Source: an uncultured bacterium (GTDB lineage Bacteria; Gemmatimonadota; Gemmatimonadetes; Gemmatimonadales; Gemmatimonadaceae). Taken from it: 57,165 bases of DNA. The position numbers were made by a program. Below, in pieces: positions 22,901 to 28,900 of the stretch; position 1 is the first letter of the stretch, and the number at the start of each line of letters is the position of its first letter. The stretch is from positions 1 to 57,165 of the forward strand of contig CAXBQP010000011.1 of the NCBI GenBank assembly GCA_963978095.1, written 5' to 3'.

Positions 22901-25900
22901 TCTCGCCCTTGGTCACGCTGATGCGCCCCAATGAGGCATAGACGGAATAATCCCCACCGCCGTGCTGGATGAACACCGTCGGGCCGTACGTTCCGAAGCT
23001 CTCGCTCACGAGCGCCACCACGCCGTTCGAGACCGCCTTCACCGGAGTCCCCACGCTGGCCGCGATCCCGACCCCATTCCAGCGGATCGTGGTGTTGTTG
23101 GGATTCACGGCCTTCCCGAATCGATAAATGATCGTACCATCCACTGGCCAATCGAGACGTCCGAGATCCGAGGTCCGCAGCGTGCTGGCGACCGGAGCTT
23201 TGGCGCCCGGGCGCGACTCGGCGCGCTTGCGCTCGGCCTCGAGCGAGGCGAGCGTCGCCACGATCCGTGCTTCATCCCGGGCGATCTGTTTCAGCCGCTC
23301 TTCCGTCGCCTGTTGACGTGCCTGCACCTGCGCGAGGCTGCGCGACCGCTGCTTCTCCAAGCCCGCGAGCCGCGACTCTTCCGCGGCCTTGTCCTCTCGC
23401 GAGGTCGCGACATCGGCGCGCAGCCGCATGAGCGTTTCGCGTTGCGCCGCGATCTGTTCCCCGAGTTTCTCGACCCGGTGCACCAGCGAGCGGTCACGCA
23501 TGGCCACCAGGTGCAGATACTTGTAGCGCGCTACGAGGCTGCCGAACGACTGCGCCGAGAGCAGGGCCTCGACGCTGTACAACGGTCCGCGCTTGTAGAT
23601 CTCGCGCACGCGATGCTGCAGAATGGCCTTCTTGACGGCGACTTCGTCCTGCGCCCACACGAGCCGCGCCGTGGTCTGGCGTTCTTCCTCGCCCAACGAC
23701 GTGAGCTGATTGTCGAGGGAGCGTACCACGCGCGCGGTCGCATCACGCTGCCGTTCGAGGTTCGTCCGCTCCTCGGACAGATCGTGGACCGAGGACTGGA
23801 GTTCACGCATCCGGCGCTCGAGATCCGCGCGCTCGGCCTTGATGCGGTCCAGCTCCTCGCGCTGCGTGCGCAGGCGCTCGGCGGCCGGCGGCTGCTGCTG
23901 CGCCGCCAGCGGCGCTGCCAGGACGGAACTCGCGACGGCGACGTACAGACCGAGCAGCCCGCGCACGGCGCGGCGACGGCTGGGTGTCACACGCTCCGGA
24001 GGTGCCGGCTCACACTGAGCGCACTGCCGACGAAGCCGAGCAGCGCGCCGGCACCCACGCCCAGGATCACGAGTCGCGCATCGAAGAATTGGGCCGCGAT
24101 CACGAAGCGCGTGATCAGCGAGTACGACACCCAGGTGAGTGCCAAGGCGAGCACACCGCCAAAGGTTCCCTTCACGGCCCCGTCAATCAGGAACGGGCTT
24201 CGGATGAACCCGTCCGTGGCCCCCACCAAGCGCATGATGGCGATCTCCCGCGCCCGCGCGAGCACGGCCATGCGGATGGTCGAACCGATGATGATCACCG
24301 CTACCCCGGCGAATGCAAAGCCCAGGACGAGCCCCGCCAGCGTGGCGATGTTCCGGATGCGATACAACTTTTGTACCCATTCCTCGCCGTAGCGCACGTC
24401 ATCCGTGAAATCGTACGTCTTCAGGCGTTCCGCGACCGCTTTGACCGTGCTCGGGTCGCGGAACCCCGGCTTCAGACGCACGTCGAGTGACGCGGGCAGG
24501 ATACCGGCCTCGAAGACGTCGCTGAACTCGCCCAACTCCTTGCGGGCCCGCTCCAGGGCCTGCTCGCTGCTGACCAGCGCGACGGACTGCACCTCGGGAA
24601 AGGCCCCGATGTCACCGGCGGCCGCGCTCGTCGCTTCGGCCGCCGTTCCGTCGGCGACGAACGCACGGATCTCGACCCGGTCCTCCACCTGGGCCAACGC
24701 CGAGCGGATATTGAGCGCCACGAGGCCGAACAGCCCGAACGCGTACAAGGAGAACGCGATGGTGGTGATGCTCAACAGGCTGAGTACCGGCGAACGCCGG
24801 AAGCCGTTGATCGCTTCGCGGGTGGCGAGGCTCATGCGCTCCCTTCCCCTGACGGGGACGCGATCGTTCCCGGAGCTGCCGAGTCGAACACCAGCGCACC
24901 GTGATTCAACTCCAGCGTGCGGCACTCCGCGCGCTTGACGAGGTCCAAGTCGTGCGTCGCCATGATGATGGTCGTGCCGGCGGCATTGATGTCGCGCAGC
25001 AGCTGGAAGACGCCGCGCGTCGCGCGTTCGTCGAGATTCCCCGTCGGCTCGTCGGCGATCACCAGCACCGGATCGTTGGCCAAGGCGCGGGCGATCGCGA
25101 CGCGTTGTTGCTCGCCGCCCGAGAGTTCGGGCGGGTATGCCGTCGCTTTGGAGGCCAACCCGACCTGCGTCAACAAGCGGGCGACCTTCGGGGCGATGCT
25201 GTCCGCCGGCGCCCCGGTGACCTCGAGGGCGAAGCCGACATTGGCCTCGACCGTGCGGTCGTCGAGCAGGCGGAAATCCTGGAAGATGACGCCGAGCTTG
25301 CGACGGAGTTTGGGGACGTCGCTCCCGCGGATGGCCACCGAACTCATGCCGGCCACGCGCACCTCGCCATCGTTGGGCCGTTCGTCCAGATAGCAGAGCT
25401 TGAGGATCGTGCTCTTGCCGGCACCGCTCGGTCCGGTCAGGAACACGAACTCGCCGCGCGCCACGTGGAACGACACATCGCGCAGTGCCATGCCCGTGCG
25501 CGGGAACTCCTTGGTCACGCGGGTGAATCGTATCATCCGCCGGTCAGCCCACGCCGGGAGGCAGCACCGGCCGGTCGGCCGTGGCCTTCACCAGGCGAAC
25601 AATCTCGGAGAGCGTGACGCCGGCGAGATCGCGGACCACGACACCACCTCGCGGTACGGTGTCATCGATCAGCACGGGGGCGAACTCATGACGGCGCGGC
25701 CCGTAGACCCACACGAACTCGCCGTCGACCACGGCCCGCATGGCGGCGTCGTCACTGCGGAGTCGCACGAGCGGGCCCCGTTCAGGGTCCCCTTTCCGCG
25801 TCGCCACGAACCCGACCACCTGCAGCGGCGGATTGAAGGCCATTACTGCACGGTCCGCAGCGGATGGTAGCCGTGCCCGGCCTGTCGGACGAGTCGCCGT

Positions 25901-28900
25901 TCGTGCAGGAGCTCCAGGATCCGCTGCACCTCGGCATGATCCCGCCCCGCGCGTTCCGCGAGGGCCTGCACGGAGGTGCCACCCATCGCGTACACCAGGT
26001 CCCAGAGGGCGCGCTCGTCGTCGTTCACCGCGCCGACCAGGCGCGCGCCACCGTCCGCGAAATGGACGACCATCGCGAGCCCGTGATGGTGCAGCACATC
26101 CTCGATGGCCTCGAGGTGGTGGTCGGTGATGCCATGGAAGGTCACGATGCCCCAGGTGCGCGCCGGCGTCCCGTGCGGCGGATCCTGCAGCAACTTGGCC
26201 ACGACCTCGTCCGCACAGGAGAAGTCCATCATCCCGATCTGCGAGAAATCGAGCGTCGCCGTTTCGTCGGCCGGGAGGAGCGCGAGCTCCTGCTCGATGC
26301 ACCGCCGCACCGCCGCGCCAGTGGAGCGCGTGACGAGATTGCTGTACGGCAGCTTCGCCGAGTGGCGGAGGACCGTCCCCACATCGATGCGCGTCATGAC
26401 GCGGGGGCCGAGAGCTCGCCGGGGATGATCACGCGCAGCTGCGCCCCGGGAAAGGGCGCCAGGTTCTCCTGCAGCGGCACTCCGTCGTCCCACGACGGAA
26501 TGATGCCGATCCGCGCGGTCCCGCTCCGAATGGTCAGTTTGCCGTTGCGACGACCGATGTACCCGCGCGTGCCCTTGAGGCCCTGTCCGCGCCCGGCATC
26601 GGGGAAACGACTCACTCCCTGGATCAGTGCCGTTTCGAGCGCCAGCCCGTCCCCCCATCGATCGGTGATCGGACGCCGATTCCCCATCTCGAGCGAGCGA
26701 CGGAAGCCCATCCCGGGATCGCACACCACGATCTCCGCCACCCAGCGGCCCGCCAAACGCTGCCGGTACTGGTACGCCTGCGCCATCACCCAGCCGGGGC
26801 GCCCGGCGTGGTCCACGATGTTCTGGACCGTTTCCGAGAGCGCCATCGTGAAGCCCATCTGGGCGCGCGGCTCGAGCTTGAGCCGCGTCGTGAGGATGTG
26901 GCGCGCTTGCTCGGCGATCCGCTCCACCACCAAGTGCACGTCGGAGGCCGCCGCGATCGGCGTGATGCCCAGCAGTTTGTCCCCTTCATCCGTGGAGCGC
27001 ACCCGCGGTACGCTGCCCTGCACGTCGAACAGCGCTTCCGCGTGGCGGAAGAATCCGGCGCGACTCCAATACGTGGACACGTTGCCGTCGATCGGAGGGA
27101 GGAACGTCGCCTTCTCCGACCGCGTCTGCCCCAACGTGAGCATCGCGGTCAGGCCGTACGGCGTGCCGAACGTGCAGTGACGCGCATCGACGATGACTTT
27201 GGCGTCCTCGGGCTGCGCGGCAAGCTGCTCGAGCACCTGCTCGAAACTCTTGTCGTCCAGCGAAGGCGGCACAGTGATGACGGCAGTCACGAGCGGTGCA
27301 ACTCTCCCCGTAGATAGTGGGCCAACCCGGTAGCGCCGCGATGCTCCACATTGCGCGCCGCCGCAGCGAGCGCGCGCTGCATCGCTACAGACATAATATC
27401 ACCGGCGACGAGTCGCGAGAAATAGGTCGCACCCCACACGTCGCCGCATCCCGTCGGGTCGCCCCCGTCGGGCGCCTGTGCCAGGGACGGCGGGACGAGA
27501 GCGGTTCGCACCGCACCGAACGCGTTGCCGGCGGTCGCGTGGCGCGACACCGAAACGTCCGCCAGCTGTTCGAAGCCCGGTGCCGCGAAATACACCACGC
27601 CACGCGCGCCCATGGTCACCACCAAGTTCTGGACCCCCTCCCCAAGCGCGAGCGCCGCAAGGGCCATCGGATCCGCCGCCATCATCGCCAGCTCGTCCTC
27701 GTTGACCTGCACGAGGTCAAAACACCGGCACCACGCGGCGACGTCCGCGAGTGGTTGATAGGTGCGCAGCCCATCGGCCTGCACGGCCAACACCAATGAG
27801 TGCAAGTCGCAATAGATGGGGCCGCGGTAGTGCTGCCGGAGCAGCTGCGCGGTCTCCAGGTCGAGTTCGAAACCGCTGATCAGATTCACATACAGCGCAT
27901 CGAGGCCCTTCAGGAGCGGCTGCAACCCGGCCCAACTCCACCCGGGAACGCCACCGGTCAGTACCTCGCTCCGGCGCTCAGCGTCCCGATAAAACAGTTC
28001 CACCCGGTTGTTGCGATACGGCACCTCGATCGGCTGCGCGTCCGGCGCGAGGCGGCGCAGCGTACGCAAGAACTCCCGCGCCTGGGGCGCGAGGTCCTCG
28101 CCGACCTTCACCAGCGGGACGAGCTCCCAGTCGTCGGGAAGCGCGGCATCGCATGCGCTCAAGGCGTAGGTAATGCCCCCCCACTCCTCGATCGGCGCGC
28201 CGCGTCGGTCACGCCCGTGAATCACGTCCCAGACGAAGGTGCCGATCACGCCCAGCCGTCGGCGCCGCGACGGCCGCGTCACGCCTCGACAGGATGCTGC
28301 GCGAGGAACGTCGCAACGGCACCGACCGTCCCTGCGGTCCCGCCGAGCGCCCCCGGGACGATCCGGCAAGCCTCCACGGACGGCTTGAAGGCGCGACGCC
28401 GCACCTCGGCCCGCAATGGCCGGAACAGATCCTCCCCGGCCTGTGCCACGCCGCCGGCCAACACCACCACCTCGGGATTGAACAGGTTCAGCAAGTTCGC
28501 GATGCCGGTGCCGAGGAACCGCGCCGTCTCGCGCACCACCTCACGCGCGACATCGTCCCCCTTGGCCGAGGCGTCGTACACCATCTGGGCCGTGATCTTC
28601 CCCAGATCGCCACCGCACATGGCCGTGAGCTGCGACTCCTCGCCGCCGGCCATCCGCTCCCGCGCACGCTCGGCCGTCGCCGGCCCGGACGCATACGCTT
28701 CGAGGCAGCCGTAGTTGCCGCACTTGCAGCGTCGGCCGTTGGCATCGATGGTCGTATGCCCGATCTCACCGGCCGCGTCGCTCGATCCGTGGAACAACTT
28801 GCCGTTCAGAATGAGCCCACCCCCGATTCCGGTGCCGATGGTCATGCCGACCACATGCTGCGCCCCACGGCCGGCGCCGACCCACCACTCGGCAAGGGTC

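Follow-up and report, generated by a model that had tools for sequence, protein, structure and literature searches.

A class-wide housekeeping version of the CapK/CapS-type kinase and target in Gemmatimonadetes, probably acting on proteins instead of genes

Genes A and B of an uncultured Gemmatimonadaceae bacterium, which lie next to each other in the window (the whole analysed stretch of 57,165 nucleotides, contig CAXBQP010000011.1), constitute a class-wide housekeeping version of a CapK/CapS-type kinase and its target. Sequence comparison identifies the two proteins as homologous to CapK and CapS, the nearest known system (Chambers et al., EMBO J 2026, PMC13373217; CapS structures 9Z71-9Z73), a DNA-damage kinase and its target for which control of neighbouring immune operons was described in 2026 (PMC13373217). 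In other bacteria the nearest relatives of the pair retain the appearance of gene repressors, with a well-defined site on the DNA, whereas B of the class has apparently lost the ability to bind DNA, so that the switch probably acts on proteins instead of genes. What is new is the outgroup operator with intact DNA-binding features, as opposed to their loss in Gemmatimonadetes; none of the papers listed by the literature searches dealt with this gene pair, and the 12 of 14 supplement files of PMC13373217 that were searched, Datasets EV1-EV3 included, have no Gemmatimon* entry.

Location, neighbourhood and distribution of the gene pair

The two genes are found on the minus strand at the location given by the initial annotation and overlap each other in ATGA (Table 1). 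The class set comprises 59 loci and is biased, as 28 of the 59 come from the window's family and kin are not independent; its counts exclude the distant partial hits L051, L052, L054 and L055 and the duplicates L063 and L067-L070. Within this set A and B are separated by at most 6 bases in 54 loci. The order pfkB-A-B, initially held to be present in all loci, has exceptions, pfkB being directly upstream of A in 55/59, with a 4-base overlap in 44 and a conserved catalytic motif. Overlapping genes are common along this compact operon.

Table 1. Features of the A-B locus and its neighbours
Feature	Position	Strand	Remarks
Gene A: serine kinase of STAS-GHKL type, homologous to CapK and probably to VapK, no N-terminal HTH	26394..27290	-	298 aa, GTG start
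Gene B: STAS plus degenerate winged helix, CapS homologue	25843..26397	-	184 aa
A residues 1-92: STAS sensor domain	27015..27290	-	profile match and AlphaFold2 model
A residues 105-290: GHKL kinase domain	26421..26978	-	E153 at 26832-26834, N157 at 26820-26822
A residues 173-182: Tyr/aromatic/basic loop, predicted ssDNA groove	26745..26774	-	aligned with CapK Y236-K237-G-K239
B Ser60 codon, equivalent to CapS Ser54 (Asp+2)	26218..26220	-	alignment; modelled against A Glu153, Gly237
B residues 123-180: winged helix	25858..26031	-	recognition helix variable, often acidic; wing short
pfkB-family sugar kinase, upstream neighbour of A	27287..28282	-	stop overlaps A start (GTGA)
99-aa double-psi-barrel-like protein	25544..25843	-	PF01568 match below cut-off; start overlaps B stop (TAATG)
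ROK-family kinase, upstream operon neighbour	28279..29436	-	ORF limits, true start internal; 49/56 long loci
ftsE-ftsX-envC, downstream operon neighbours	22770..25536	-	in the order only; ftsE in 19/56 long loci

The neighbours of the class loci are lepA, GT9, ROK, pfkB, a Cys/Met enzyme, ftsEX-envC and nfo, and the gene after B encodes a PF01568-like protein, a Cys/Met PLP enzyme, FtsE or others; the 99-aa double-psi-barrel-like gene is confined to the window's family, being present in loci L001-L027 and absent from L028-L030 and from those of other families. Among these neighbours there is no adjacent immune operon, no VapC/PIN toxin directly after B as a third gene, no annotated sigma factor and no phosphatase, PP2C included; the genome's single PP2C and canonical STAS protein are on contig C14, in a separate RsbV-RsbW module. 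In one RNA run (share 0.06), neither A nor B had coverage that could be used.

Of the 133 other class genomes sampled, the same 132 carry both genes, which agrees with a fixed, vertically kept pair; the tallies take in two unpublished genomes, G055 and G095, with no sequence from either being used. The pair had been regarded as a single-copy core of the order Gemmatimonadales: it is indeed found in all 105 other order genomes, and its range is class-wide, as it also occurs in 27/28 genomes from the other orders of the class, with no orthologue in the 17 genomes of other classes; it is single copy in general, G076 having two. A viral origin was set aside, no relative being detected in viral_contigs (alignment A4, one pattern set only).

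Kinase A, its putative substrate B and their modelled complex

The AlphaFold2 model of A is confident (pLDDT 91.8) and HATPase_c_2 is matched in 65/65 A members (E<=0.1). The GHKL boxes are invariant in 59/59 class loci, as initially observed (E153/N157, D191-G193-G195, G233-R-G235-x-G237, G257 and G282), and the same Foldseek matches to SpoIIAB (1tid), CheA P4 and RsbW (6m36/6m37) were recovered, none of them at E<=0.001. The N-terminal domain profile matches the solved STAS protein 4hyl (E 0.002), with an invariant Pro44 where the serine of an ordinary STAS protein is aligned, and this domain is thus probably not itself phosphorylated. In the groove loop, Y173 and R/K182 are kept in 59/59, an aromatic at 175 in 57/59 and R178 in 56/59, while columns 174 and 176, aligned with CapK K237/K239, hold K/R in at least 21 and at least 34 of 59; groove residues Y74, R77, Y173, R228, R234 and R255 are equally conserved in the class and in the outgroup, where the operator stands before repair genes. 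The CapK W68 column contains Ser in 41, Thr in 5 and Gln in 3 of 59, and is mostly non-aromatic in the outgroup too. The PADLOC match to DISARM DrmA was also reproduced (E 4.7e-11), but it covers only positions 98-248 of a 1750-position model and the large helicase is absent, for which reason this identity was rejected.

The model of B is equally confident (pLDDT 92.2). The DFSCADE motif is present, D58, S60, A62, D63 and E64 are invariant in 59/59, and the proposal of Ser60 as phospho-site gains from its position in the same column as CapS S54 and at the active site of A in the docked model. Foldseek relates B to Csa3 (E 8e-4, TM 0.31, rmsd 11) and RsbS (E 0.058), and DUF4325 (PF14213) is matched by 6/63 B members at E<=0.1 (best 9e-4), the window protein being unmatched. 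The likeness to Csa3 noted initially is real but restricted to the winged helix: PADLOC and NCBIfam matches span residues 126-177 only and the CARF ligand-binding domain is absent, so that a Csa3/CARF regulator was discarded.

The profile of A aligns with CapK over 234 columns (hhalign prob 95.7, E 1e-8), starting at CapK 68; the N-terminal HTH of CapK is dispensable (PMC13373217). The link of B to CapS is transitive via the outgroup, direct comparison being weak (prob 5.6, E 0.007): the B profiles of class and outgroup match each other (prob 100, E 3e-42), outgroup B matches CapS by BLASTP (E 3e-7, 173 columns), and in the PDB the outgroup profile finds the CapS structures 9z72/9z71 ahead of all others (E 1.6e-7 and 1.7e-5). 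The STAS assignment, initially said to rest on weak hits, is therefore firmer than first thought.

The A-B complex model scored 0.80, the best of 3 controls reaching 0.01, and passes a mark reached by 116/157 solved complexes and 2/215 mismatched pairs, a result which may reflect similar complexes already solved rather than an independent prediction. The runs agree in at least 97% of contacts, with partner pLDDT of at least 86; E153-S60 and G237-S60 are among the closest modelled contacts, and most invariant surface residues of B fall within the modelled interface with A. We found no third partner and no class-specific surface.

Operator and winged helix in the class and in the outgroup

Close, undescribed orthologues of the pair occur in Nitrospirota, Desulfobacterota, NC10 and Brocadiales, where they are chromosomal and patchy in their phyla, the kinase being around 50% identical (query P0250 against both groups). 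They share the LVTR and D-[FY]-S-C-A-D-E motifs and the gene order with the class but, unlike it, have kept the recognition helix and wing conserved; behind their kinase gene come a sigma-70 promoter and an operator of 19 bases. This operator, TTCAATTGAA-N4-TTGAA, is located before recA- and mrfAB-type genes in Nitrospirota, Desulfobacterota and NC10. It follows the kinase at a distance of up to 330 bases in 28/54 outgroup loci (27 with TTGACA) as against 0/22 class loci, and no perfect site exists in 151 phylum genomes; single TTCAATTGAA 10-mers in outgroup genomes are mostly chance occurrences inside genes, and the 19-mer alone was used. A different class-specific operator was rejected, as no conserved dyad around the operon (upstream of lepA, ROK, A and ftsE, downstream of B; 19-56 long loci) clearly exceeds shuffles, the top counts being GC-rich and at most 2 above the shuffle maximum. 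No sigma-70 site was found between 20000 and 36000 of the window, a weak result as shuffles give 0.8. The operator is not a LexA box, the listed sites in G151, G152, G213, G226 and G234 not being at lexA genes, nor does the pair substitute for SOS, as LexA passes the cut-off in 146/151 phylum, 74/101 Nitrospirota and 5/5 outgroup genomes. The operator string was not found together with recA in the literature.

The winged helix of B evidences a parallel loss. Pairwise identity of the recognition helix is 0.30 versus 0.49 for the STAS domain in the 59 class proteins, and 0.70 versus 0.61 in 23 outgroup proteins (frameshifted duplicate L098 excluded). The wing has 9 residues in 46/59 class proteins, 17-18 in 19/23 outgroup proteins and 18 in CapS. 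Positions corresponding to the CapS DNA contacts N145, K151, G169 and G170 are variable or acidic in the class: that of K151 is D/E in 37/59, and the wing glycines are absent in 58-59 of 59, G170 being Gly in 23/23 outgroup proteins and in none of the 59. Moreover, the HTH is deleted in at least 21/132 genomes, in at least 3 separate ways. Most genomes retain a folded winged helix (pLDDT 96-98), and R167, R168 and R171 are kept in 115-119 of 119 close relatives (P0124 and P0167 excluded), features which leave room for weak or non-specific nucleic-acid binding. On a Z-DNA-binding (Zalpha) role the VIA run, which barely tested the STAS half, is uninformative, its top rows being tied with ArsR/MarR domains (Z 10.5 versus 10.4). 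Promoter, operator and DNA contacts are lost while the kinase site and Ser60 are invariant, which makes a kinase-substrate switch likely and a working transcription factor unlikely in this clade; of the phospho-switch on a transcription factor first proposed, the kinase and its STAS substrate are retained and the transcription factor is not.

Proposed mechanism, alternatives and relation to known systems

We favour, with moderate confidence, a CapK/CapS-type pair turned into a protein-level switch within a housekeeping operon of the class. The class ancestor would have taken such a pair into the lepA-(waaF)-ROK-pfkB operon; the promoter and operator between A and B would then have been lost and the genes become overlapped, so that both proteins would be co-produced from the housekeeping transcript. 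From homology and the model, A is predicted to bind the STAS domain of B 1:1 and to phosphorylate Ser60. B would no longer be a sequence-specific repressor, its phosphorylation state acting as a partner switch in which B, as long as it lacks the phosphate, keeps hold of the kinase or a third protein, which phosphorylation then releases, following VapS or anti-anti-sigma logic. It is plausible that the trigger is still ssDNA in the STAS-GHKL groove, a point on which the chances seem evenly balanced.

An improbable alternative is that B remains a phospho-regulated transcription factor which acts in trans on lineage-specific operators elsewhere, as first proposed; its ancestors were repressors and the retained fold matches ArsR/MarR/IclR-type domains, but conservation of the recognition helix does not exceed that of the remaining domain, and at the CapS DNA-contact positions the helix is acidic even in the close relatives (E/D in 106 of the 119 at position 156 and in 111 at 162), to which add the shortened wing, the HTH deletions and the lack of an operator near the genes. 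We consider similarly unlikely a change of input, by which the STAS domain of A would have come to detect a sugar-phosphate, a nucleotide or an envelope precursor linked to the co-translated ROK/PfkB/heptosyltransferase genes and the switch would tune that pathway or FtsEX-EnvC. The pfkB overlap and its conserved catalytic motif, the long stem of the class kinase clade (1.07 changes per column, support 100/100), the absence of W68 and the prevalence of LexA in the phylum would fit such a change of input; however, pfkB is missing in 4/59 loci, ftsE is next in only part of the class, the groove residues are common to outgroup kinases in other neighbourhoods, and overlaps are frequent throughout the operon.

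Addiction modules and passengers tend to be patchy, like the outgroup pair (27/101 Nitrospirota genomes), and the presence of A-B in 132/133 genomes, with around 30 kinase positions that do not vary over several orders, makes it quite improbable that the pair is an operon passenger without regulatory output or an addiction-like module whose kinase is harmful unless held by B, even if the conserved surface of B is mainly the A interface and related VapK/VapS pairs are part of toxin-antitoxin loci (PMC13373217).

The favoured protein-level switch bears on how a defence-type switch becomes domesticated, since the chromosomal CapK/CapS branch would have gone two ways: in Nitrospirota and Desulfobacterota the repressor stayed intact, with a predicted operator before DNA-repair genes, and in Gemmatimonadetes the form became fixed class-wide, with an invariant kinase site and phospho-serine and with DNA binding seemingly gone. 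A bolder and rather doubtful extension is that the chromosomal branch controls recA and mrfAB via the operator, and that throughout the class a serine kinase activated by ssDNA serves as a DNA-damage checkpoint that works outside transcription and beside LexA, in which the phosphorylated ex-repressor would release or capture a housekeeping partner such as PfkB or FtsEX-EnvC; this would be a candidate LexA-independent DNA-damage circuit.

In respect to known systems, A-B shares with CapK/CapS the succession of a kinase gene and a STAS-winged-helix gene, the STAS-GHKL kinase with its N-box Asn (N157 in 59/59, CapK N218) and, at least in part, its Tyr-basic loop, the D-x-S phospho-serine (S60 in 59/59) and, in the model, the kinase-substrate docking. 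It differs in that A has no N-terminal HTH and begins with the first STAS strand, the ssDNA-stacking aromatic W68 is not kept, A and B overlap or nearly touch and thus have no promoter or operator between them, the winged helix is degenerate or deleted, and the pair is the fixed core of a class and not a patchy defence locus beside an immune operon. VapK-VapS-VapC, compared by description, likewise has a STAS-GHKL kinase without HTH and a STAS substrate, VapS, whose output is protein binding and not DNA binding (PMC13373217), whereas A-B has no PIN toxin gene after B, which usually retains a winged-helix remnant. Finally, in SpoIIAB/SpoIIAA and RsbW/RsbV, too, a GHKL serine kinase has a STAS serine as its target; A-B is distinguished from these switches by the STAS domain of the kinase itself, by the winged helix of B, and by a locus with no sigma factor or PP2C in a genome that carries a separate canonical module.

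Location, range and anatomy of the pair

Gene A, encoding a STAS-GHKL kinase, and gene B, encoding a STAS and winged-helix protein, were both found as minus-strand open reading frames at the place indicated by the initial annotation. The genes around them run in the order lepA, heptosyltransferase, ROK kinase, pfkB, A, B, a double-psi-barrel-like gene, ftsE, ftsX, envC and nfo; the GC content here is ordinary.

Features of the A/B locus on contig CAXBQP010000011.1
Feature	Position	Strand	Remarks
Gene A	26394-27290	-	298 aa; overlaps gene B by ATGA
Gene B	25843-26397	-	184 aa; overlaps gene A by ATGA
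Double-psi-barrel-like gene, stand-alone	25544-25843		99 aa; restricted to the window's family

We have surveyed 150 genomes, sampled evenly across the phylum, together with the genome of the window, the unpublished genomes G055 and G095 entering the presence tallies only. Both genes are present in all 105 other genomes of the order Gemmatimonadales and in 27 of 28 from other orders of the class, so that the fixation in the order claimed initially stands, with a range that is wider. In 17 genomes of other classes, also queried with outgroup profiles, B has no match and A merely short generic ones. The pair is real and class-wide. Within a set of 59 class loci from 58 genomes, related to one another, 28 of the loci being of the window's family and nine distant or duplicate loci having been left out, pfkB lies immediately 5' of A in 55, and in 54 no more than 6 bases separate A from B. 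The operon segment occurs in two copies in G076 (L050, L057), and in G104 (L038) a stretch of 1334 bases with a cyclophilin gene lies between A and B, in G115 (L041) one of 363 bases.

The predicted structures of A and B are confident (pLDDT 91.8 and 92.2). A consists of a STAS domain (1-92) and a GHKL domain (105-290), with invariant E153, N157, D191-G193-G195, G233-R234-G235-G237, G257 and G282, and B of a STAS domain (1-112) and a winged helix (123-180), with invariant L21, T23, R24, T26, G27, R31, D50, D58, S60, A62, D63 and E64.

Kinship with CapK/CapS and the modelled complex

According to PMC13373217, CapK, an HTH-STAS-GHKL kinase, senses ssDNA and phosphorylates the STAS-wHTH repressor CapS at S54, whereupon the CapS dimer comes apart and the adjacent immune operon is derepressed; in VapK/VapS the same chemistry sets the VapC toxin free. 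With the CapS and CapK sequences of that study, taken from an E. coli record, the alignment of A to CapK spans 234 columns (prob 95.7, E 1e-8), N157 and Y173 falling on N218 and Y236. The direct alignment of B with CapS is colinear and weak (prob 5.6), with S60 opposite S54, and the B profile retrieves PDB 9z71 and 9z72, both CapS entries, weakly (E 0.13 and 1.3). Through intermediate sequences the kinship of B with CapS is firm.

Modelled together with ATP and Mg, A and B score 0.80 (best control 0.01); 116 of 157 solved complexes attain the mark used for this score, as do 2 of 215 mismatched pairs, a rough calibration given the custom alignments and the ligand. Contacts agree among runs to at least 97%, partner pLDDT is at least 86, and S60 of B contacts E153 and G237 of A. 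Since similar complexes have already been solved, the model is evidence of likeness more than of binding.

Orthologues outside the class and their predicted operator

A profile search for relatives of A gave 4172 clusters at E≤0.001. Among the best 80 of 501 loci, the nearest non-class kinases are those of Nitrospirota, Desulfobacterota, NC10 and Brocadiales (the outgroup), with B orthologues behind the kinase in 24 of these loci or elsewhere in the genome. In a tree of 47 rows the class kinases form a single branch (100/100) with a long stem, the deeper order being unsettled and CapK a long branch.

We have found a predicted operator, TTCAATTGAA-N4-TTGAA, with a TTGACA promoter, 3' of the outgroup kinase gene, at most 330 bases behind it in 28 of 54 loci and farther off (378-4754 bases) in 10 more. 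The perfect 19-mer occurs in 24 of 27 Nitrospirota genomes with the repressor vs 2 of 74 without it, these being kin genomes and not independent, and the reversed 19-mer in none of the 101; the kinase is found in 25 of the 27. The half-site spacings of 5 and 14 bases are those of the narrow and wide CapS palindromes, whereas the half-site is TTCAA instead of the TTAA of CapS (PMC13373217). Literature searches found no paper on this operator or on the A/B pair.

The operator is followed by cinA-thpR-recA in several outgroup genomes and by rmuC or mutS in others. In Nitrospirota (L228, that is G213:C1:2870000-2886000; L232, L233, L124) the operator-promoter heads a same-strand repressor-(pgpA)-cinA-thpR-recA run, followed in L228 by pilT-like and recX genes, which is a candidate LexA-independent DNA-damage operon; LexA coexists with the outgroup system. 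Additional perfect operators in a Syntrophobacterales genome, G152 (L229:6886, L231:4266, L230:6257), precede an MrfA-MrfB-type pair (MrfA-type helicase and RNase_H_2 exonuclease), gltX-smc and an ORF for an unannotated, secreted-looking 169-aa protein.

The outgroup promoter-operator is also an insertion hot spot (L091-L131, e.g. L093, L096, L101, L130; L085, L201), with R-M, methylase, toxin-antitoxin and ORF6N genes, up to ~11 kb (G154), between operator and repressor. In a prophage-like region of G213 (L227:6517-7680, G213:C1:3241516-3242677) two triple operator arrays flank a small HTH gene 5' of a 564-aa terminase-like ORF with no Pfam match, and this element may read the host repressor. 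The same genome carries, beside its chromosomal orthologue, an ordinary HATPase and DUF4325 pair 5' of Pycsar-like and restriction genes in a defence-type layout (L234:5467-7016). Some Desulfobacterota and Nitrospira defence loci are listed in the datasets of PMC13373217.

Losses in the class and the probable mode of action

Like CapS, outgroup B retains recognition-helix and wing features: recognition-helix identity is 0.70 vs 0.61 for STAS, T159 and N163 are invariant, the wing has 17-18 residues in 19 of 23 proteins and its glycine is present in all 23. A distinct picture emerges in the 59 class proteins, where recognition-helix identity is 0.30 vs 0.49 for STAS, no winged-helix position except L161 and L164 is at least 90% conserved, the wing has 9 residues in 46 and D/E occupies the CapS K151 column in 37. 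As the long wing is common to CapS and the nearest outgroup, loss in the class appears the simpler reading. The helix-turn-helix is absent in 5 of the 59 loci and in 16 of 20 additional regions fetched for early-ending matches, which makes at least 21 genomes out of 132; these deletions are lineage-wide, with ~40 residues missing in several genera of family f2 and the entire domain in genus g9 (L243-L261, L060, L057, L017, L020, L025). The perfect outgroup operator occurs in none of 151 phylum genomes, that of the window included, one-mismatch matches occur in 3 of 134 class genomes, and a dyad search around the operon in class loci yielded no other that stands out.

On balance we favour a co-translated kinase and substrate in which A would phosphorylate B at Ser60, B would act by partner switching at the protein level and ssDNA would probably be the trigger. 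Phosphorylation, taken alone, is very likely from the alignments and the model, and a protein-level output instead of repression only slightly less so. Against this reading counts that the winged helix is still folded in most class genomes and keeps some basic residues, and that the sampled genomes are related; that B remains a transcription factor is nonetheless unlikely, given the variable recognition helix, the deletions and the lack of a detected operator. The invariant surface of B is largely the modelled interface with A, so that B may chiefly be an antagonist of A, by analogy with anti-anti-sigma factors; alternatively it may sequester a third protein in the manner of VapS. The kinase groove is as conserved in the class as in the outgroup (Y74, R77, Y173, aromatic 175, R/K182, R228, R234, R255), and CapK W68 has no aromatic counterpart in class kinases and mostly none in the outgroup. 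The odds of an ssDNA trigger are about even, and that A has come to respond to a sugar or envelope metabolite is about as improbable as a retained transcription factor. An addiction module or passenger seems a still poorer account of the pair.

The kinase family was already known, but the outgroup operator, together with one-sided decay in the class, opens both branches to direct test. In sequence and model the chemistry of A/B resembles that of CapK/CapS, whereas A/B lacks the N-terminal HTH and W68 of CapK, the DNA-contact residues of CapS, and the operator and immune setting of that system; A/B is a class-wide variant, which we do not regard as a full member, of the already known CapK/CapS kind.
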